A stretch of 64,000 nucleotides of DNA from a virus (lineage: Duplodnaviria > Caudoviricetes). Positions within the stretch are counted from its first letter, which is position 1; each line of letters starts with the position of its first letter. The notes beneath the pieces were generated by a model. The model did not search any database and was not told the DNA's origin. It saw nothing but the letters and a program-made list of their open reading frames with translations. Shown one piece after another: positions 4,821 through 38,775 of the stretch. Location: IMG/VR virus record IMGVR_UViG_3300045958_000007, positions 1-64,000 of that record; one strand, written 5' to 3'. The position numbers and the translations under genes are program-made.

Positions 4821-5936
4821 TTACGCCCCGGGAACCGCGGGCACCGCGCTCAGGATGTCGGCCAGCGCGCCGCTCGGCGCCGCGAGCGCCGTGCCGGGGA
4901 TGAAGCTCGATGCCCCGTAGCTTGGCATCCAGAGCGATCCCGAGGAGTAGGGCGTGAACCCCTCGGGGGCCCCGCCGGTCGCCCCCATGCTGTTGAGACC
5001 TTGCATCATCCCTGCGCCCATGGCCGCGTTGCCGATGCCGCTGAGGGCGCCTGACCACGCATTCGCGCCGCCCATGATCCCGGCCGCCTGCGCGTTGGCC
5101 GCGCCGGTGCGGAAGTTGCCTGCCATCTGCGCACCCTGAAGTCCGGTGTTGCCGATGTACTCGTTACCCTGCATCGCGACGTTCGACTTGAGCCCGGCGC
5201 CCTGCAAATTGGTGTTGGCCGCGAGATTCGCAAGCGAGGTGAGCTCGCCGCCATAGATGCCGCCGGCCTGAATCGCCTGCTGGTTCGCGGTGGTGCCGAG
5301 TCCCGCGAGCGAGAGGTAGCCCTGCTGGTTGGTGTTGAACGTCGAGAGCGCGCGGTTGTAAGCGTTCTGGTAGCTGGTTCCGGCGAGGCCCTGCGCGTAG
5401 TTCTCGGTGGCCTTGAGCGCCGCCCCGGACTGCAGCATGCCCCGCGCCGCCTGCGAGTTGCCGAGGGCCTTCATGCCCTGCTGTAGCTGGAACTGATAGC
5501 CCGGGTCGTTCTGCAGCTCCTGCGGATTGAAGCTGAAGGTTCCGGCGGTCGATTGGAGCTTGTTGAGCCCGTAGGTTCCGGCGGCCTGATAGGGCTGGAG
5601 GCCCCCGGTCATTCCGGCGTAGATTCCGGCCTGCGCGGTACCGGCGTTCCCGATGGCCGTGTTGGCGGCGCCTACTCCGGTGTCGATCGCGGTATTGGCC
5701 TGCCCCATGCCGGCATAGCCGGCGTCAATTGCCTGCCCGGCGGCCTTGTCCACCGCGCCCGCCGCAGCCTGCCCGGCCGCGGCCTGCGCCTTCGCCGCCC
5801 GGCTGGCCGCCGACGATCCGATGATGCCTCCAATGAGGGAGGTGCCGGCCGAGATCGCCGAGAACGGGTCCATCAGGCGCACTCCGGCCGGATCGCCGAG
5901 GGGGAACATCTCGGCCAGTTGATTTTTCGTTAGCAT
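4821..5936 (-). CDS. DNA transfer/ejection protein (P22 gp7-like)
   Basis: G/A/Q-rich; N-terminal AISAGTSLIGGIIGSSAASRAAKAQ, DPGYQFQLQQG motif; ATG 5936 overlaps upstream stop (alternative ATG 5873). Confidence 0.65.
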   Translation of the reverse strand: MLTKNQLAEMFPLGDPAGVRLMDPFSAISAGTSLIGGIIGSSAASRAAKAQAAAGQAAAGAVDKAAGQAIDAGYAGMGQANTAIDTGVGAANTAIGNAGTAQAGIYAGMTGGLQPYQAAGTYGLNKLQSTAGTFSFNPQELQNDPGYQFQLQQGMKALGNSQAARGMLQSGAALKATENYAQGLAGTSYQNAYNRALSTFNTNQQGYLSLAGLGTTANQQAIQAGGIYGGELTSLANLAANTNLQGAGLKSNVAMQGNEYIGNTGLQGAQMAGNFRTGAANAQAAGIMGGANAWSGALSGIGNAAMGAGMMQGLNSMGATGGAPEGFTPYSSGSLWMPSYGASSFIPGTALAAPSGALADILSAVPAVPGA

Positions 5937-6406
5937 TTGGGTCTCTTCGCCCGCATCACCAGCAGGTCGTACAACTCTCCGTTTTTCGTGCCGGCATCCG
6001 GCACCGTTGCGCAACGCTCGAAGCCCGCGCGCAGCGCGAGCCGCAGCACGAGGCGGTTATAGGACGGCACCGGCCCGCGGATCTCCTCGTACCTCGTCGC
6101 GCCCCAGGCCCACGCAAGAAACTCCCGCACCAGCGCGACGGTCGAGCCCCATACCCGCGGCGCGCAGCAGATATGCACCTCGGCCACGCCCGAGCCGGCC
6201 CAGATCTCGGCCAGCAGAAACACCGCCGCGGCAGCTCCGGCGCCGTCGAAGGCGACGATCCAGTCCGCGCCGCGAACCGGCCCGACCGTCGCCAGCTCGC
6301 GCGGCCGGGCGCCGTCGTGGACCATGCGCCGGTAGCACTTCGGATCCGTGAGAATCGGGCGGATCAGGCTGTAGTCGGTCGAGCGCGCGAACCGGAAGCG
6401 CGGCAC
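5930..6406 (-). CDS. GNAT-fold virion assembly protein (P22 gp14-like)
   Basis: 158 aa with AEVHIC, PSYNRLVLRLALRAGF; directly upstream of gp7-like gene as in P22. Confidence 0.6.
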   Translation of the reverse strand: MPRFRFARSTDYSLIRPILTDPKCYRRMVHDGARPRELATVGPVRGADWIVAFDGAGAAAAVFLLAEIWAGSGVAEVHICCAPRVWGSTVALVREFLAWAWGATRYEEIRGPVPSYNRLVLRLALRAGFERCATVPDAGTKNGELYDLLVMRAKRPKC

Positions 6407-31162: not shown

Positions 31163-31350
31163 CAGCCCTCGATCGACTCCGGTAGCCGGATGGCGAACGG
31201 ATTTTCATGGGCGCCCGAGAGATTAACGGCAACCGCCGGTGCCGGGCGCTTGGGGCAGAAAACGGCGTGCTCGCCGCGGCCAAAGACGCAGGCCTCGCAG
31301 GCCGATCCGGTGTCGTTTTTATACGGTCTCGAAACGATTTCGTGCTTCAT
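31162..31350 (-). CDS. Small Cys/His protein
   Basis: CEAC...H...C; ATGA-coupled. Confidence 0.45.
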   Translation of the reverse strand: MKHEIVSRPYKNDTGSACEACVFGRGEHAVFCPKRPAPAVAVNLSGAHENPFAIRLPESIEG

Positions 31351-31976
31351 TTTTCCTTGAGCGCCATCCGTAGGGTGCTCCGCTTGACGCCGAGGTCGCG
31401 GGCGATCGCGTTCCAACTCCAGCCCTGCGCCCGCAGCTCGAGGGCGCGCCCGCGGGGAAAGATCTTGCGCGGGCGTCCGCAGGGGCGATCCTGCTTGGAT
31501 TTGGAGCGGCGGTCCCGGCCCTCCCCGACCCTGCCGGCGGCGTAGTCGCGGCGGTACTGGTCAACGCCCGCCTGGACGCGCTCGATAATCAGGTCGCGCT
31601 CGAATTCCGCGAGCACCGCCAGAATGTGCATCAGCAGCTTCGCCATGGGACTGCGCTTATCGGTGTCGATCCCCTGCGTGGGGGCGATGAAGCGGATCCC
31701 GAGGCTATCGAGCTCCTGGACTTTTTCGACGAACTCGGCGAAGGAGCGGCCGAAACGGTCGATCTTCCAGACCGCCACCACGTCGAACTTGCGCAGCCGC
31801 GCATCCTCGAGCAGCCGCTTTTGCGCCGGGCGCCGTCCGCCCGCCTTGCCCGAGGCCTTCTCGACGTACTCGATGGTGTCCCAGCCGTGCCGGGCGGCCA
31901 GCGCGCGCAGCTCCTGAAGCTGCATCTCGCAGTGTTGATCCTTGGTCGAGACGCGGGCGTAGAGAGCGGCCGTCAT
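31347..31976 (-). CDS. Small serine recombinase (resolvase/invertase)
   Basis: YARVSTKDQ, VWKIDRFGRS, AEFERDLIIERVQAG, GRPRK plus C-terminal HTH. Confidence 0.9.
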   Translation of the reverse strand: MTAALYARVSTKDQHCEMQLQELRALAARHGWDTIEYVEKASGKAGGRRPAQKRLLEDARLRKFDVVAVWKIDRFGRSFAEFVEKVQELDSLGIRFIAPTQGIDTDKRSPMAKLLMHILAVLAEFERDLIIERVQAGVDQYRRDYAAGRVGEGRDRRSKSKQDRPCGRPRKIFPRGRALELRAQGWSWNAIARDLGVKRSTLRMALKEK

Positions 31977-32458
31977 TGGGCTGTTGCTGCTTCAATCACC
32001 CATCGGACCTTGGGGCCGACCGGATACCTCGCGGCCCGCGGCCGTTTGGGGCGGTTCCAGGGCCGGCCTTCGGTCATGCCGTCCGGACGCATGCCGATGG
32101 CGCACAGGCTGGATCCGCTTTCCTCGGGCATCGTATAGGTCACCATGCGGGTGTAGCCGAGCGCCCGCGCCGCGCGCCAGATCGCGCCGTAGAGCATCGA
32201 ATTGGCGTTCTTGGCGCCGTCCGTGCAGGTGCGGCTGACTTCGATGGTGCGGCCGTCGCATAGCGCCTTCGCTACCGGATTGCCCGCGATCGCCACCCCG
32301 CGCAGACCGCCCCGCGGACCGCAGACGCCTACCGCAAAGCGATGCGCCTGCCGTCCTCCGTGGTGCCGGTGGTGGCGCTCGACGAAGCGGTTGGCGTCCT
32401 TGAGGGATACCGGGACCAGGCGCAGCGCCTGGGCCGGGCGGCTGGCGGAAGGACTCAT
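31973..32458 (-). CDS. XF1762-like GNAT-fold protein
   Basis: ANRFVERHHRHH, EVSRTCTDG, NSMLYGA, GYTRMVTYT..EESGSSL. Confidence 0.7.
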   Translation of the reverse strand: MSPSASRPAQALRLVPVSLKDANRFVERHHRHHGGRQAHRFAVGVCGPRGGLRGVAIAGNPVAKALCDGRTIEVSRTCTDGAKNANSMLYGAIWRAARALGYTRMVTYTMPEESGSSLCAIGMRPDGMTEGRPWNRPKRPRAARYPVGPKVRWVIEAATAQ

Positions 32459-33399
32459 GCGGCGCGCTTGGCCTCCGCGAATTTCGCAAGCCGCTCATGG
32501 GACATCGCGACGTACTCGGGGTTCAACTCGATCCCGACGTAGCGGCGTCCGTGCTCGAGCGCGACCAGGCCCGTGGTCGCCGCGCCGTTGAACGGATCCA
32601 GCACCACGTCGCCCGGCCGGCTTCCCGCGAGGAGGCAGGGCTCGACCAGCGCCGGCGGGAAGGTGGCGGAGTGGGCGCCCTTGAACGGCCGCGTATTGAT
32701 GCTCCAGACCGTGCGGCGGTTGCGGCCGGAGCCGTCGTCCTCCCACGGAATGCCGGTTCCGAGGTGGTTATTGGGCCGCGTAGGCGTGTCCGTGCCGCGC
32801 CCGCGCTCGTACCGCGCTAGCGTGTCTGCTTTGAGCGGTTCCTTGACCGCCGCGTGGTCGTAGTAGTAGCGCCGGCTCTTGGTGAGCAGGAACAGATACT
32901 CATGGCTGCGCGTCGGCCGATCCGTAACCGACTCGGGCATCGGGTTGCCTTTCGACCAGATGATGTCGGAGCGCAGATACCACCCGTCCGCCTGGAGGGC
33001 GAATGCCACGCGCCACGGAATGCCAACCAGGTCCTTGGGCTTCAGTCCCTCGATCGGCATCCGGTTCGGCTGGAACGTCGGGATGCCGGCATGGGGATTC
33101 TTTGAGTCCGGGTGGGTTTTGCCGGCTTTGCCGCCGCCCGTCGCATAACAGTCGCCGAGGTTGAGCCAGAGCGTGCCGTCGTCCTTGAGTACTCGCCGCA
33201 CTTCGCGGAAGACATCGACGAGCCGGGCGACATACTCCTCGGGGGTCTTTTCGAGCCCGAGCTGCCCGTCGACGCCGTAATTTCTCAACCCCCAGTAGGG
33301 GGGCGAGCTGATGCAGGTCTGCACGGATGTCCCGCGCATTCCTCGCAACCCGGCCAGGGCATCGCCCGTGAGAATCTCGTATCGCGACCTTCCCCTCAT
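32455..33399 (-). CDS. N4/N6 DNA methyltransferase (beta class)
   Basis: SSPPYWGLR, HSATFPPAL, VLDPFNGAATTG; ATG 33399 in ATGA overlap. Confidence 0.9.
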   Translation of the reverse strand: MRGRSRYEILTGDALAGLRGMRGTSVQTCISSPPYWGLRNYGVDGQLGLEKTPEEYVARLVDVFREVRRVLKDDGTLWLNLGDCYATGGGKAGKTHPDSKNPHAGIPTFQPNRMPIEGLKPKDLVGIPWRVAFALQADGWYLRSDIIWSKGNPMPESVTDRPTRSHEYLFLLTKSRRYYYDHAAVKEPLKADTLARYERGRGTDTPTRPNNHLGTGIPWEDDGSGRNRRTVWSINTRPFKGAHSATFPPALVEPCLLAGSRPGDVVLDPFNGAATTGLVALEHGRRYVGIELNPEYVAMSHERLAKFAEAKRAA

Positions 33400-33662
33400 C
33401 TCTCCTGCTCGCATTTCTCTTCCAGCCGGCGAAACGCCTTCCGCACCTTCTCCCACCGCTTTTGATCGAAGATGCCGGCGTTCAGGGTCTCGGCAAAGCT
33501 GTTCCACTGCCTCGTGAAGTCCTGCCAGAGGGCGTAACCGGCATCGCTTTCGGGCGACTTCTGAGCAATCGCCGCGGCGGGGACGGCCGCCGAGAGCGCC
33601 ATCGCCCGGAGAAGCCGGCGGCGGGTTTGGATGGAAAGGCTCATCGGCGGTTTGTTCGGCAT
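33396..33662 (-). CDS. Small protein with twin-arginine (Tat)-like signal
   Basis: TRRRLLRAMALSAAVPAAAIA-QK; GAGG RBS before ATG 33662. Confidence 0.55.
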   Translation of the reverse strand: MPNKPPMSLSIQTRRRLLRAMALSAAVPAAAIAQKSPESDAGYALWQDFTRQWNSFAETLNAGIFDQKRWEKVRKAFRRLEEKCEQER

Positions 33663-33735
33663 ACAACCTCGCGGCGCGGTATGCCAGCGCCTTGTCGGGC
33701 GGACTCGGGCTGCAGGGGAGAGCAGCCGGGTCGGC

Positions 33736-33993
33736 TCAATCAAGCTCATCGAACTGAAGTGTGGTCAGACGGTCCTCGTCGGGCACCCAATGCGCCGGGG
33801 TGCTGGGTAAGAGCGGGCTCCGGAGCGGCTCGCCGAGCGCGCTCCCTCGCGCGATGCTCGGCCGTGCGTAGTAGGCGCGCTCCGCCGCACCGTGGTTGGC
33901 GTCGAAGATTTCAGCCCATCGCGCGCAGTCGCACCGGCGGAGGCCACATGGACAGCCACCATCCAGAGCGGGCGCCAGAGCGGTTGCTGCCAT
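33736..33993 (-). CDS. Cys-rich small protein, paralog of 35030..35281
   Basis: CPC...CDCARWAEIFDANHG...YY. Confidence 0.55.
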   Translation of the reverse strand: MAATALAPALDGGCPCGLRRCDCARWAEIFDANHGAAERAYYARPSIARGSALGEPLRSPLLPSTPAHWVPDEDRLTTLQFDELD

Positions 33994-33995
33994 AG

Positions 33996-35030
33996 TTATG
34001 CCGCGAGGCGGCGCTCCGCGATCGCTAGATATGCGGGCTCGCGCTCGATCGCGACAATTTCTTTCCAACCCGCGCGGCGGGCGCCCAGAACCTCGGAGCC
34101 CGACCCGGCGAACGGCACCAGCAGCCGGGCGTCGGGCGAGGGCGGCAGAATCAGGCGCGCCAGATACTCGCACAGCTTCACCGGCTTTACCGTGGGGTGC
34201 GTGTTGCCTTCGCCGCGCTCTTTCTTACTGGCCTTGGCGCAGTAGAAGAAGCGGCTTGCCCCGCCGGCGTCGTTTTTCCAACCTGGCGGGCATTGGTGGC
34301 CGTTGAACTTCCCCCAGGTGTTGCGTGTCTTGTCGGCATGCCGCCGATCCGGAAAGCCGCCGGAGTGCAGGGTGCCGGTCTGCGCGTCCAGCTCGGCCGC
34401 AGATTGGGGATCCAGGATGACGTTCGCCGGCCAGCGGCCGGAGTCGTGCCGCGCGCTGCGGTATTCCTGCCGGCCCGGCGAGTCAATGAACCCTGGTTTG
34501 CAGTTGCGGTTACTGCTGCCCCACACCCCGTTTCCCTTCGGCCCGGGGATGCGGCAGGTGTTGATTGCGAGCGGTCGCTTTTTGCCCGGCTTCCACGCCA
34601 GCGTAATCGGCTCCCATGCGGGTTTCAGGTTGCCGCCCTTGGGAAACCCCTGCCCGTAGAGCCAGCAGAGCGTATCGCCGATCAGGAAACCCGCGTCCTC
34701 TAGCGCGCAGGCCAGGCGGTGAAAGGTCCGCGGTCCGCCGAAGGCCAGCAGCGGCGCGCCGGGCTTGAGCACGCGGAGAACCTTGGCCCAAACCTCCGGG
34801 CCCGGTACGCGATCATCCCACCTCATGCCCATGAACCCGCCGGGACCGTTGCCGGCGCCGATCCGCGCACGCCCTGCCGGATGCCGCAGATTGATCGAAC
34901 GAACCCCGCTGCCACCTTGCTTATTCGCCGTGAGGCCATACGGCGGATCGCAGAGGCAGGCATCAAATGATCCCGCCGGCATCGCGCGCAACGCCTCGGC
35001 CACCTCGCCCGCTACAATCCTGGTGCTCAT
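33996..35030 (-). CDS. N4/N6 DNA methyltransferase (beta class)
   Basis: CDPPYGL, LKPAWEPI, HPTVKP, LVPFAGSGS. Confidence 0.9.
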   Translation of the reverse strand: MSTRIVAGEVAEALRAMPAGSFDACLCDPPYGLTANKQGGSGVRSINLRHPAGRARIGAGNGPGGFMGMRWDDRVPGPEVWAKVLRVLKPGAPLLAFGGPRTFHRLACALEDAGFLIGDTLCWLYGQGFPKGGNLKPAWEPITLAWKPGKKRPLAINTCRIPGPKGNGVWGSSNRNCKPGFIDSPGRQEYRSARHDSGRWPANVILDPQSAAELDAQTGTLHSGGFPDRRHADKTRNTWGKFNGHQCPPGWKNDAGGASRFFYCAKASKKERGEGNTHPTVKPVKLCEYLARLILPPSPDARLLVPFAGSGSEVLGARRAGWKEIVAIEREPAYLAIAERRLAA

Positions 35031-35281
35031 CAATCACTCCCCCGGCCGAGCGACGATAGCGGCGACTGCGGATGGATCGCGCGCGGGCTGTAGTAATCCC
35101 GCATGGTCTCCCCGTGGTTGCGCTCGAAAATCTCGTCCCATTTCGCGCACTCGCATCGCTCCCGGCGCCCGCACCACTGGCACCGCGGCGCCGTCTTGTC
35201 CTCTTGCGTGGCGGCGCGCTCGTAGTTCGCGCGCCGGTGGCAGTTGCGGCAGATCCCGCAGGAACACCGGGGAACCTTCAC
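35030..35281 (-). CDS. Cys-rich small protein
   Basis: GTGA-coupled start; CSCGICRNC...CQWC...CECAKWDEIFERNHG...YY. Confidence 0.55.
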   Translation of the reverse strand: MKVPRCSCGICRNCHRRANYERAATQEDKTAPRCQWCGRRERCECAKWDEIFERNHGETMRDYYSPRAIHPQSPLSSLGRGSD

Positions 35282-35754
35282 CGGGGCCGTCGTCTCCGCT
35301 TTGGGCGATGGCGGCAGCTCCGGCGCTGCGCGCCCATAGCGGCAGCCGCCGGCTTTTCGTTGGCCTCCGCCGGAGCGGCCGGTGCGGTCTCGCGGGCCGC
35401 GCTCGCCAGGCTCACGGCCACGGGCAGCAGGTAGCGCCGCGCAAACTGGTCCAGTTCGAGCCCGAGCTCGGCGACCGGCAATTGAAAGTCGACGTAGATC
35501 GGACTCTTGCGCCCCACCGGGAAGATGACTGCCGCGAACGCCACCAGGTCGTTCTTTTCCCCGGCGCCGTAGACCCATTCGAGGTGGAGCGCCGCCTTCT
35601 TCGCGTGGTCGATCGCGCTGGCGTAGCCGCCGATTTCGAGGTCGCGTTCGCCGGTGCCGGGGCTGTACATCTCGGGCGTCCGGCCGCCGTCCTTCTCGAA
35701 TTCCGCCTCGAGGAGCCGCAGACACTCGAATGCGATGTGCGCGCCTTTCAGCAT
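35278..35754 (-). CDS. Hypothetical protein
   Basis: ATG 35754 overlaps upstream stop. Confidence 0.5.
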   Translation of the reverse strand: MLKGAHIAFECLRLLEAEFEKDGGRTPEMYSPGTGERDLEIGGYASAIDHAKKAALHLEWVYGAGEKNDLVAFAAVIFPVGRKSPIYVDFQLPVAELGLELDQFARRYLLPVAVSLASAARETAPAAPAEANEKPAAAAMGAQRRSCRHRPKRRRRPR

Positions 35755-36011
35755 CCGTTGAAAAGGTTCTCCATGCGCCCCACCGAGGGGTGCGCGCCGC
35801 GGCGCTGGGTGAAGTTCAGGAGGCTCGAGGATTTCTCGGCGCACCGCTCGGCGGCTTCGCGGATCTCAAACAGAAGGGGCCGGTTGGGGGCGTCCGCCGG
35901 AAGGGCGCCGATATAACGATCGATTCCGGTGAGGATGATGGTGAGCTCGTCGTTGAAGTCTTTCGCGCCGGCGGAGGCCACCGCGTTGATCCAGTCCGCC
36001 TGACTGCTCAT
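35748..36011 (-). CDS. Stand-alone HisKA/DHp-like domain lacking the phospho-His
   Basis: TAATG-coupled start; GAKDFNDELTIILTG...LFEIREAAERC...SLLNFTQRR. Confidence 0.6.
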   Translation of the reverse strand: MSSQADWINAVASAGAKDFNDELTIILTGIDRYIGALPADAPNRPLLFEIREAAERCAEKSSSLLNFTQRRGAHPSVGRMENLFNGC

Positions 36012-36250
36012 TACTTCTTGAGGCCCGCGGACACCATGAACATCGTTCCGATGGCCCCGCCCAGCAGGAGCACCAGCATCCCGAGACCCGTCATCATCAT
36101 GGTTTTGAGCGAGTCCAGCTTGCCGTCCATCCTGACGATCGCCTCCTCGTTCTTGCCGATTTGCTCGTGCAGGTTTTCGATTTTCGCGCCGTGCTCCGCC
36201 ACTCGGCTGGCGAGGGGATTTTCGGCGGAGATGGCGGTCGGGCTGGTCAT
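36011..36250 (-). CDS. Holin-like protein (coiled coil plus C-terminal TM, XhlA-like)
   Basis: 79 aa; heptad segment then TGLGMLVLLLGGAIGTMFMV. Confidence 0.5.
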   Translation of the reverse strand: MTSPTAISAENPLASRVAEHGAKIENLHEQIGKNEEAIVRMDGKLDSLKTMMMTGLGMLVLLLGGAIGTMFMVSAGLKK

Positions 36251-36434
36251 GGCGCATTACCGGGGCGGCCCTACGCTGGGATAGCGGCGGGCAAGGAAGG
36301 TTCGGGGCGGAGATCTTTTACCAACGGCGTCGGCTCCGGCTCGTGGGGGCAACCGTCGTCGGCCATGCGGTCGAGTTCGTGTTCTTGCTGAGGGCTGTCT
36401 TCGGCCACGCGATTTGCTGCCGCTGGGAACGCGG

Positions 36435-37082
36435 TTACTGGTTGACGCAACTGCCCGAGACCGCGGCGTTGACTACCCGCTGGATGTCGACGAGGCCGAA
36501 CGTGGATCCACTGCTGAGGCTCTTCAGGCTACCGACACCGCTGACTACCTGGGACACTGCCGCCACTACGTCGAGCGCGTTGGTTGCGCCGTCGCCGTTC
36601 AGATCGCAGGGGGAGAGCAGGGGGATGTTGACCGCCGGGCCCGCGGCCGTGGCGACGGCGCTTCCGGCGAGTGACGCCGATAGGGTGTTGGTCAAGGTGA
36701 ACGAGGGGCCCGTGGTGTTGGCTGAGGTGAACGGGCTGATGGGCGCTACCGGCACCGCGACGGTGGCCACCACGCCGTCCGCCAGGGTGTTGCTGTTGAC
36801 GCCGTAGAGGACGCAGGTGGTCGTCTGCTGCGCGTTGGCGCCACACTGCACGGTTTTCTGGGCGGCCGTCGCCGCCGGTCCGGCGGTGACCGTGGCGCCG
36901 GACGGAACGGTGAAACTCCACTCCGACGCCGCGATGTTCTGGCCGGCCGAGCCGGCGAGGTTGATGCTGACGGTAGCGGTCTGCCCCGGCCGCGTGGCCG
37001 GCGCGGATACGCCGAGGCTGGGCCCGCTCTGCGCGATCGCGAGCGAGGCCAGCAAGAGGGTCATCAGGAGGATTCTCTTCAT
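36435..37082 (-). CDS. Exported cohesin-like plus dockerin-like protein
   Basis: MKRILLMTLLLASLAIA-Q; AGPAATAAQKTVQC; CDLNGDGATNALDV EF-hand-like loop. Confidence 0.65.
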   Translation of the reverse strand: MKRILLMTLLLASLAIAQSGPSLGVSAPATRPGQTATVSINLAGSAGQNIAASEWSFTVPSGATVTAGPAATAAQKTVQCGANAQQTTTCVLYGVNSNTLADGVVATVAVPVAPISPFTSANTTGPSFTLTNTLSASLAGSAVATAAGPAVNIPLLSPCDLNGDGATNALDVVAAVSQVVSGVGSLKSLSSGSTFGLVDIQRVVNAAVSGSCVNQ

Positions 37083-37414
37083 GCTGCTTTGTTTCTCAGG
37101 CTTTCGTGGTGAACCCACAGCGCCACCGCCACCCGGTTCGGAAGCTCCAGCTTCGTCATGACGGCGTGCATGTACTGTTTGACCGTCCCGGGGGTGAGGT
37201 GCAGGCGACTACCGATTTCCTTGTTTTGCAGGCCCTGCCCCACCAGGAGCGCGACCTGCCGCTGGCGGCTGGTAAGCTCTCTCGATGGAGGACGGTGCTT
37301 CTTCAGCGCCGGGCCCTTGCAGTCCGGGCAGACCCGGGCGCTCTCGGTGCGAAACTCCCTCCCGCAACGGCTGCAGGTGCGGGCTTCCAGCACGGCCGGG
37401 AAATTCTGACTCAT
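37079..37414 (-). CDS. LuxR-type HTH regulator with N-terminal zinc ribbon
   Basis: CSRC...CPDC; LTSRQRQVALLVGQGLQNKEIG...TVKQYM...KL. Confidence 0.8.
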   Translation of the reverse strand: MSQNFPAVLEARTCSRCGREFRTESARVCPDCKGPALKKHRPPSRELTSRQRQVALLVGQGLQNKEIGSRLHLTPGTVKQYMHAVMTKLELPNRVAVALWVHHESLRNKAA

Positions 37415-37783: not shown

Positions 37784-38197
37784 TCAGATTTCGAGCGTCG
37801 AGTGGATGGCCTCGACCGCTTCCCGAATGACTTCCACCCTGGCCTGCAGCCGCGTGAGGCGCACTCCCATGGGCGACACTGCCGGGCCTGGCGCGGTCTT
37901 CTCGCCGGTGTTCGGCTGCGGGTTCGCCCGCACTACCTCGAGGCGGCTCCCCAGCCTTTCAACGGCTTCCCCAAGGGCGTCGATCTCCTTCTCTACGCGC
38001 TCGGCGATCTCGGGAATTTCGAGCGTCCGCTTCGGGTGTTGCAAGTGGATGGGCTCGCCGGCCGGGAAAGTGGTTTTGAGAATCCGGCGCGGATCGTTCA
38101 CGATGCCCACTTCCTGCTCGGGTGCCGTGTTGTGCTTGGCGGCTTCGGCCCGCTGCCATTCCTCTTGTGCGCGCTTATATTCTCGAAAGTCAGTCAT
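37784..38197 (-). CDS. Hypothetical protein
   Basis: ATG 38197 coupled to nusG stop. Confidence 0.5.
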   Translation of the reverse strand: MTDFREYKRAQEEWQRAEAAKHNTAPEQEVGIVNDPRRILKTTFPAGEPIHLQHPKRTLEIPEIAERVEKEIDALGEAVERLGSRLEVVRANPQPNTGEKTAPGPAVSPMGVRLTRLQARVEVIREAVEAIHSTLEI

Positions 38198-38775
38198 CAC
38201 GCTGCTTTTCTCCCCTGAAACTCCGGCCGCGCCGGCGCCGACATCGCCGGCATCATGACTTTCACTGGCTCCCTCGCGATGGGCTCTAACATCGCCACGT
38301 CCACCTCGGCCGAAATCGACCGCCGCAGCATGGTGACGCTGACGATCACCCGCGCGGAATTCTTCGCGTACACAACGAAACCTTCGAGGCCCGCGAGCGG
38401 CCCGCGCACGACTCGCACTCGATCGCCGGCGCTGACAAAAGCGCAGGACTCGACCGCCTTTACCAGGGGTGTGTTTACGATCCGGCGGACCGCCGCGACC
38501 TCGAACTCGGAAAGGGCGACCGGAGACCGCCCGCACCCTACGATGCTTACCACTTGCGGAATCTCGATCACCGGCCGCGCATGAAGCAGCTCAAACCTTG
38601 CGAAGCAGTAGCCCGGGAAAAACTTGCGTTCGATGGTGCGGGCTCCGCCCTTGCGCGAGGGGTCCTTGCGCTCCTCTACCAGGTGCGGATAGAAGGCATC
38701 GATTCCCTCCCGGCCGAGTTTGTCGACCACGAGGCGTTCCTGGGCGGAGCGGCAGTGTAGGGCGTACCAATCCAT
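38197..38775 (-). CDS. nusG: NusG/RfaH-family transcription antiterminator
   Basis: MDWYALHC...E, FFPGYCFARF, IPQVVSIVG, KOW GDRVRVVRGPLAGLEG. Confidence 0.85.
   Translation of the reverse strand: MDWYALHCRSAQERLVVDKLGREGIDAFYPHLVEERKDPSRKGGARTIERKFFPGYCFARFELLHARPVIEIPQVVSIVGCGRSPVALSEFEVAAVRRIVNTPLVKAVESCAFVSAGDRVRVVRGPLAGLEGFVVYAKNSARVIVSVTMLRRSISAEVDVAMLEPIAREPVKVMMPAMSAPARPEFQGRKAA

Follow-up and report, generated by a model that had tools for sequence, protein, structure and literature searches.

To our knowledge, two-component signalling is usually described as the pairing of a kinase and a regulator, with HPt, Spo0B and ChpT as the only free phosphotransfer modules. Spo0B and ChpT are dimeric four-helix-bundle phosphotransferases derived from DHp domains; they do not autophosphorylate but act between receiver domains, and both keep the acceptor histidine (His) and a C-terminal alpha/beta domain resembling the CA domain of kinases. 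Histidine pseudokinases such as DivL and RocA are also known, as are Sda and KipI, small proteins that bind the DHp region of kinases. RocA is treated in PMC7028121, the Bacillus anti-kinases Sda and KipI are reviewed in PMC10730256, and the disruption of the GacS DHp dimer by RetS is a case of inhibition by DHp heterodimerisation (PMC8498467). Here we analyse a window of 64,000 nucleotides (nt), positions 1 to 64,000 of the virus record IMGVR_UViG_3300045958_000007, and within it P0001, the 87-amino-acid (aa) product of an open reading frame (ORF) at 35748-36011 on the minus strand. The source record is a 72.9-kb IMG/VR virus genome, complete by CheckV, with a GC content of about 66% and with portal, terminase and tail genes. 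Judged by its sequence relationships, P0001 is a homologue of the DHp (HisKA) domain found in PAS hybrid kinases of the CckA type. It is carried by a phage but belongs to a wider family of free-standing proteins without annotation, here called mini-DHp.

The gene for this stand-alone DHp-like protein (35748..36011, minus strand) is identified by its translation, by its third-position GC content (GC3) and frame switches, by family matches and by the profile match to the CckA DHp domain. GC3 is 0.84 in the P0001 frame, and the coding frame changes cleanly at 36011 and 35754. Because the high-GC3 frame switches exactly at both ends, we take the ORF and its boundaries to be real, not a chance frame of a GC-rich genome. 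The TAA of the upstream gene overlaps the P0001 ATG by 1 nt at 36011 (TAATG), and the downstream ATG at 35754 overlaps the P0001 stop (ATGCTGA). A preliminary description, made from the letters of the window, had reported an 87-aa ORF at this place, coupled translationally to both neighbours and containing a DHp domain with neither sensor nor ATPase; each of these points holds. Stops flank the frame, the neighbouring genes have no HATPase_c, P0001 has no HATPase_c covalently attached, and there is no other match in the 72.9-kb phage genome. The sequencing runs that hold the P0001 stretch are soil-metagenome DNA runs only, with no RNA run listed.

A phmmer search of P0001 against 1.84 billion representatives gave 200 matches at E<=1e-3. 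The best, P0002, is 86 aa long and 61% identical (E 3.7e-24). All of the first 30 matches are 86-153 aa in length, and full-length kinases first appear at E ~1e-7. These full-length relatives are PAS-HisKA-HATPase_c(-REC) kinases, matched exactly at their HisKA stretch (E 1e-7 to 1e-4). Aligned as a single sequence to the PDB, P0001 has as its best match the Caulobacter CckA DHp-CA fragment 5idj, with Lys17 opposite the His of AHDFNN. The profile of the family alignment A1 matches the same CckA structure alone in the PDB (E 3.5e-11), in an alignment that spans the DHp and continues into the first CA element, to chain residue 88. The top two NCBIfam models for P0001 are both CckA equivalogs, matched at their DHp positions (E 1.2e-4 and 7e-3). 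The DHp homology proposed in the preliminary description thus stands by the family profile and the CckA models, whereas the HMM (hidden Markov model) comparison with HisKA that it had called for gave a divided answer: Pfam HisKA (PF00512) does not match P0001 even at E<=10, but it matches 12 of the 97 family members individually (best 4e-10). True kinase relatives score only 27.7-37.4 bits on this model, against a cut-off of 26.9; the model is weak for the subfamily, which accounts for its failure to match P0001. Among phage sequences, P0001 has no match in PHROGs, and tblastn against 50,697 phage genomes returned only chance rIIA matches (E 0.7-0.9). A word-index search at near length found P0001 itself only, a word-index search with profile A1 gave at least 13 matches, and IMG/VR pattern scans with P0001 alone and with P0001, P0002 and P0004 together gave no matches.

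The closest relatives of P0001 are some 100 complete small proteins of 76-153 aa, up to 61% identical; those that bear a name in public sources are called "hypothetical protein". We define the mini-DHp family by alignment A1, which holds 97 stand-alone representatives, and count as a member any complete gene of ~80-135 aa that consists of a DHp and a short tail only; P0001 is such a gene. The start residue is Met in 80 of the 97 and Val or Leu in the rest, and the tails vary. A search of five Bryobacterales genomes with the family profile found exactly one short copy in each (123-143 bits, in an open frame of 90-153 aa), together with 6-31 full kinases at <=66 bits, which leaves a gap of ~60 bits below the mini-DHp. 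The homologues are therefore complete small genes and not kinase fragments, as the start residues and the whole-genome frames both indicate. The possibility that P0001 is a truncation of a host kinase made by the phage is ruled out by the existence of this free-standing family, single-copy in Bryobacterales chromosomes. From its sequence relationships, the family as a whole goes back to CckA-type PAS hybrid kinases, of which it retains the HisKA domain up to a point just beyond the DHp-CA linker.

A pattern scan of species-representative genomes yielded 39 genomic loci. All lie in Bryobacterales, Solibacteraceae or Terriglobia metagenome-assembled genomes with one exception, labelled Candidatus Limnocylindrales (Chloroflexota; DATNFO010000029.1), which has the same synteny of mini-DHp, tsaD and flanks and whose contig is probably mis-binned. 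The t6A synthesis gene tsaD lies directly downstream on the same strand in 20 of the 39 loci, with a gap of 0-20 nt in the three loci checked (for example L002:5001-5288, with tsaD at 5308-6384). This adjacency points to a chromosomal core context and not to a prophage. The chromosomal mini-DHp also often lies downstream of a divergent gene pair encoding proteins of ~620 and ~730 aa. The spread of the family is patchy: at E<=1e-20 a mini-DHp was found in 7 of 61 genomes sampled from the order and in none of 120 other genomes across the phylum, although not every candidate was scored. We also considered whether the mini-DHp substitutes for a missing HPt and rejected this, as HPt domains occur in all five host genomes, some of them short and stand-alone.

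Comparison of the columns of 50 kinase DHp domains with those of the 97 stand-alone members (P0001 numbering) reveals a family signature. Around the acceptor site the kinases read L-A-G-G-V-A-H-D-F-N-N-L-L-T and the stand-alone proteins A-V-A-A-A-A-[H/x]-D-L-N-D-E-L-T. Position 22 is hydrophobic in 45 of 50 kinases but Glu in 79 of 97 stand-alone members; position 60 is Leu in 42 of 50 kinases and Lys in 50 of 97 stand-alone members; position 57 is Ala or Ser in kinases (Cys in 3 of 50) and Cys in 74 of 97; and position 72, varied in kinases, is Gly in 80 of 97. The residues at 22 and 60 co-vary. Glu/Lys occurs in 43 of 97 stand-alone proteins (acid/base in at least 53) and a hydrophobic pair in ~45 of 50 kinases, and the only kinase with Glu22 also has Lys60. 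All ten signature residues (N20, E22, L23, T24, R56, C57, K60, G72, E81 and L83) are present in P0001, while Trp59, found in 47 of the 97 and absent from the common kinase residues, is Glu. Arg56 is also conserved in the kinases (46 of 50). Against a family HMM from which P0001 and its two nearest kin had been left out, P0001 scores 104.8 bits, compared with 78.2 bits on the kinase-DHp HMM; it keeps the kinase-like residues F19, E49, I50, E59 and F67.

In HisKA domains an acidic residue at His+1 is needed for kinase activity, and Thr or Asn at His+4 for phosphatase activity, Asn at this position being required for the latter (PMC3510030). P0001 has the acidic residue (Asp18) but carries Asp21, not Asn or Thr, at His+4. 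Position 21 is Asn in 48 of 50 kinases; among the 97 stand-alone members it is Asp in 54, Asn in 23 and Glu in 14.

An AlphaFold2 (AF2) model of P0001, computed from the family alignment, is a hairpin (pLDDT 93.6) with helices at residues 4-36 and 44-70 and a short helix at 80-85. Helix 1 (35904..36002, minus strand) holds the degenerate H-box A-K17-D-F-N-D-E-L-T, placed by the model and by alignment to AHDFNNLLT of 5idj. Helix 2 (35802..35882, minus strand) holds R56-C57, K60 and the LLNF..RR end; it is supported by the model, by column statistics and by predicted trans contacts 22-56, 22-57 and 22-60. The conserved tail (35757..35801, minus strand), with G72, P75, E81, L83 and the short helix, is read from the profile alignment to 5idj, from conservation and from the model, and corresponds to the kinase DHp-CA linker plus the first CA element. 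Foldseek against the PDB places 5idj second (TM-score 0.64, root mean square deviation 1.7 Å, 33% identity, E 0.59) behind a phyllogen (E ~0.6), E-values that are meaningless here because a two-helix hairpin is not a discriminating query.

Two copies of P0001, modelled with the family alignment, are predicted to form a homodimeric four-helix bundle with a score of 0.71 (best control 0.01). Of proteins whose structures are pairs of one chain, 20 of 30 reach this mark; of those solved as single chains, 1 of 23 does. Solved structures include many DHp dimers, so the score may owe something to this likeness and is not proof for P0001. The dimer runs agree in at least 94% of contacts, with a partner pLDDT of at least 76. 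Both helices take part in the predicted interface, where residue 22 touches residues 53, 54, 56, 57 and 60 of the partner chain. Lys17 lies outside it and is therefore expected to be exposed, as a phospho-His would be. P0001 is thus predicted to fold as a helical hairpin and to dimerise into a four-helix bundle. As Glu22 and Lys60 take the place of the kinase Leu/Leu and touch across the predicted dimer, pairing within the family would be favoured over pairing with full-length kinases, although the latter may also occur, given the 78 bits of P0001 on the kinase-DHp profile. Cys57 also falls in the predicted interface and may have a redox or ligand role.

At the phospho-acceptor position P0001 has Lys17 (codon AAA, 35961..35963, minus strand), read directly from the sequence and aligned to the His of AHDFNN, so that the replacement of His by Lys reported in the preliminary description is correct. 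The further expectation that homologues would consistently lack the His did not hold. The His is kept in 52 of 97 representatives (against 49 of 50 kinases; Fisher p 2e-9), in 35 of 37 readable genomic mini-DHp copies and in three related phage records. Neither are the relatives His-retaining pieces of kinases, the converse outcome that had been named as refuting: 45 of the 97 have no His, and the genes are complete. Because the related phage copies keep the His, its loss is not a general phage strategy. In a tree of poor resolution, P0002 (Thr) and P0004 (Asn) join P0001 in one group, with support of 97 for P0001/P0002; this group lies near P0006 (Lys) and two Arg-bearing chromosomal copies, and His-less members are scattered across the tree. 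Within the P0001 clade the site varies between Lys, Thr and Asn while the rest is ~50-60% identical. Of the 22 loci found by a metagenome scan, nearly all have His at the site, and the few others have Gln or Ala; P0002 and P0004, each seen on single short contigs (1-2 kb), were not among them. The His-less representatives lie on contigs of ~1-7 kb, too short for the origin of most to be read. A scan with the His-less subset found again only two of the phage records (L042/L043), with no sign that His-less members are mainly viral.

The three phage records (L041, L042/L043), also from IMG/VR, carry their His-bearing mini-DHp downstream of a NusG-like gene, as P0001 does. In the present phage this gene, a NusG-like antiterminator at 38197..38775 on the minus strand (PF02357 5e-15, plus KOW; phrog_6386 1.6e-23), heads the module, and its product is 46-49% identical to the copies in the three records (L041:1-519; L042:2871-3371). 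The mini-DHp is followed by a methylase in one of the related records and by a resolvase in the other, 48% identical to that of the P0001 phage. Since the mini-DHp is shared in the same module of related phages, it is an accessory gene that the phage lineage has inherited, not one that this phage captured recently. A prophage-like region in one Bryobacterales genome (G004) encodes a large terminase subunit (TerL) 56% identical to that of the P0001 phage, which supports Bryobacterales as the host range; the other module genes queried there (NusG-like antiterminator to resolvase, P0001 included) had no match in this region.

How might such a protein act? The near-universal His of the chromosomal copies suggests that the host mini-DHp is a phosphotransfer node of the Spo0B/ChpT kind, and not the sole one, given the HPt domains in all five genomes. 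The reading that we prefer, though tentatively and at somewhat short of an even chance, is that P0001 acts by binding only, at this host node. Lys at the acceptor site and Asp in place of the phosphatase Asn would leave it with neither canonical phosphate carriage nor HisKA-type phosphatase activity, which argues for stoichiometric binding. P0001 would pair with its presumed partner, the host mini-DHp, in mixed dimers through the common Glu22/Arg56/Lys60 interface, or could instead target the partner of the host mini-DHp. Either way the host node would be blocked or rewired during infection, in a presumably antagonistic direction, with P0001, devoid of acceptor His and phosphatase Asn, serving as a poison subunit or as a sink for the partner. 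A scheme in which the host protein is a dedicated single-copy DHp relay node, the His-less, phosphatase-dead phage copy its poison subunit, and Glu22/Lys60 a code that insulates the node from the many kinases of the cell, seems to us doubtful. Several observations weigh against the binding reading. Two tsaD-linked chromosomal copies (L032, L033) have Arg for His, and 45 of 97 representatives lack the acceptor His, so the family may work without phosphorylation and a poison subunit would then be unneeded. All three related phage records keep the His. On the kinase HMM, P0001 comes out closer to kinases than do its sisters P0002 and P0004 (78 vs 52-54 bits). The phage host is deduced only from the distribution of the family and the TerL match, and a mini-DHp occurs in just 7 of the 61 sampled genomes of the presumed host order.

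The preliminary description had proposed a decoy, not itself open to phosphorylation, that forms heterodimers with full-length hybrid kinases of the host or else sequesters response regulators. The part of this that stands is the stand-alone His-less DHp homologue, while the interface signature and the descent of the family point elsewhere, and we consider the decoy unlikely. P0001 is homologous to the DHp of PAS-HisKA-HATPase-REC kinases, of which each Bryobacterales genome has 6-31 at threshold, its kinase-like residues give it ~25 bits more than its sisters on the kinase HMM, and Arg56, a trans contact of residue 22, is common to most kinases; RetS provides the precedent for inhibition by DHp-DHp heterodimers (PMC8498467). 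However, the hydrophobic residues 22 and 60 of kinases are replaced by Glu and Lys at predicted trans contacts, the stand-alone profile gives P0001 27 bits more than the kinase one, the phage inherited the gene as a mini-DHp instead of cutting it out of a kinase, and one decoy for dozens of different host kinases would need broad specificity. It is thus more likely that P0001 mimics the host's own mini-DHp than full-length kinases. No more probable than the decoy is an auxiliary extra copy, by which the family would need no phosphorylation for its work, perhaps that of an adaptor or regulator, P0001 would add the same activity and Lys17 would be neutral drift. The many separate losses of the His on the tree would fit this, as would the two tsaD-linked orthologues with Arg, the variable Lys/Thr/Asn site of an otherwise ~50-60% identical P0001 clade and the Asn at His+4, already lost in most members (D54/E14 vs N23); yet the His of 35 of the 37 species-representative genomic copies and of the other phage copies suggests selection in most lineages, and the His-less representatives, on their short contigs, are of unreadable origin. 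Decay offers another account, in which P0001 is a functionless or failing passenger gene from the host, its closest relatives being rare (P0002 and P0004) and the related G004 prophage being without the whole module. We think this quite improbable given the intact frame with strong coding GC3, the retention of E22, L23, T24, R56, C57, K60, G72, E81 and L83, the high-confidence model, and the unchanged place of the gene in the module of phages that share only 46-49% identity in their NusG-like genes. Translational coupling to the XhlA-like membrane protein (phrog_1193, 'hemolysin'), and a place between antiterminator and terminase that resembles lambdoid lysis regions, might also suggest a lysis-cassette component acting with that protein. 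P0001 has no membrane segment, however, and no lysin signature is present in the ORF downstream; what follows the mini-DHp in L041 and L042 is instead a methylase or a resolvase, and the chromosomal family members adjoin tsaD, all of which makes a lysis role very hard to credit.

On the minus strand of the window, the NusG-like gene is followed by ORFs for coiled-coil proteins of 138 aa and then 115 aa without family assignment. The order continues with a Zn-ribbon/LuxR-type HTH protein, a secreted 227-aa protein, the XhlA-like membrane protein, P0001 and an orphan ORF, and then with a Cys-rich ORF, a DNA methylase, a second Cys-rich ORF, a second DNA methylase, a Mom-like protein, a resolvase and the small and large terminase. 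The 227-aa protein (36435-37118, minus strand) has an apparent signal peptide and a weak dockerin-type match (PF00404, E 0.095, residues 171-184). The intergenic stretch 36251-36434 folds no better than shuffled sequence (z +1.6), and promoter and terminator scans gave background levels only. The XhlA/hemolysin-like membrane protein coupled upstream of P0001 has 79 aa (36011..36250, minus strand; phrog_1193, E 2.5e-5; TAATG overlap). The orphan ORF coupled downstream encodes up to 158 aa (35278..35754, minus strand), with an uncertain 3' end (by GC3, the coding frame changes near 35340). It has no match in Pfam, PHROGs or NCBIfam and no relative in viral contigs, and its best atlas score is 0.78; having no family, no viral relatives and atlas scores <=0.78, it was dropped as a candidate partner domain.

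The two small Cys-rich ORFs, at 35030-35281 and 33736-34002 on the minus strand, precede N6/N4 DNA methylase genes at 33996-35033 and 32455-33666. They share the motif CG.R.RC.CA.W.EIF..NHG...R.YY (17 of 29 residues identical, E 7e-11) and form a paralogous pair without a Pfam, PHROG or NCBIfam family; they may be methylase-associated zinc-binding proteins. Immediately upstream of the small terminase are the genes for the Mom-like DNA modification protein (31973-32458, minus strand; phrog_1384 6.6e-28) and the serine resolvase/invertase (31347-31976, minus strand; PF00239 1.4e-38); with the two methylases they make up a dense DNA-modification block.

The family described here is conserved and unannotated and consists of the DHp hairpin alone; it is single-copy in a subset of Bryobacterales, occurs also in a phage lineage and has lost its His repeatedly. 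If the phage copy antagonises the host copy, the system would show, in compact and natural form, how mimicry of a subunit can interfere with signalling, and the swap of Leu/Leu for Glu/Lys would be a natural case of dimerisation-specificity recoding. Should P0001 in addition prove to be a poison subunit, this would be the first case of a virus that interferes with two-component signalling by mimicking a DHp subunit. If antagonism is false, what we describe is nonetheless a new family of small proteins, and one that marks the host range of phages infecting poorly cultured Acidobacteriota of soil. Full-text literature searches found no paper describing a free-standing DHp family or a phage-encoded DHp.

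Set beside the described systems, P0001 is most like the CckA-like HisKA DHp (PF00512; 5idj, Caulobacter), with which it shares the hairpin and the predicted dimeric bundle, the A-x-D-F-N motif, the LL.F..RR end and the linker into the CA domain. Unlike that domain it has no CA (ATPase), sensor or receiver part, carries Lys for the phospho-His and Asp for the phosphatase Asn, falls below the Pfam threshold, and has the family-specific residues Glu22, Cys57, Lys60 and Gly72. Spo0B and ChpT, to which none of the searches made for P0001 gave a sequence match, are a possible model for the His-bearing host mini-DHp; P0001 itself has neither their acceptor His nor their second, CA-like domain. With RetS-GacS, DivL and RocA the likeness lies in a DHp-mediated contact without phosphotransfer from the regulator and in degenerate catalytic or acceptor residues, but those are large multidomain cellular proteins, whereas P0001 is an 87-aa stand-alone phage domain whose interface signature sets it apart from the kinases related to it. 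Sda and KipI, finally, are not DHp homologues, whereas P0001 is one itself and would act by mimicry or subunit exchange.

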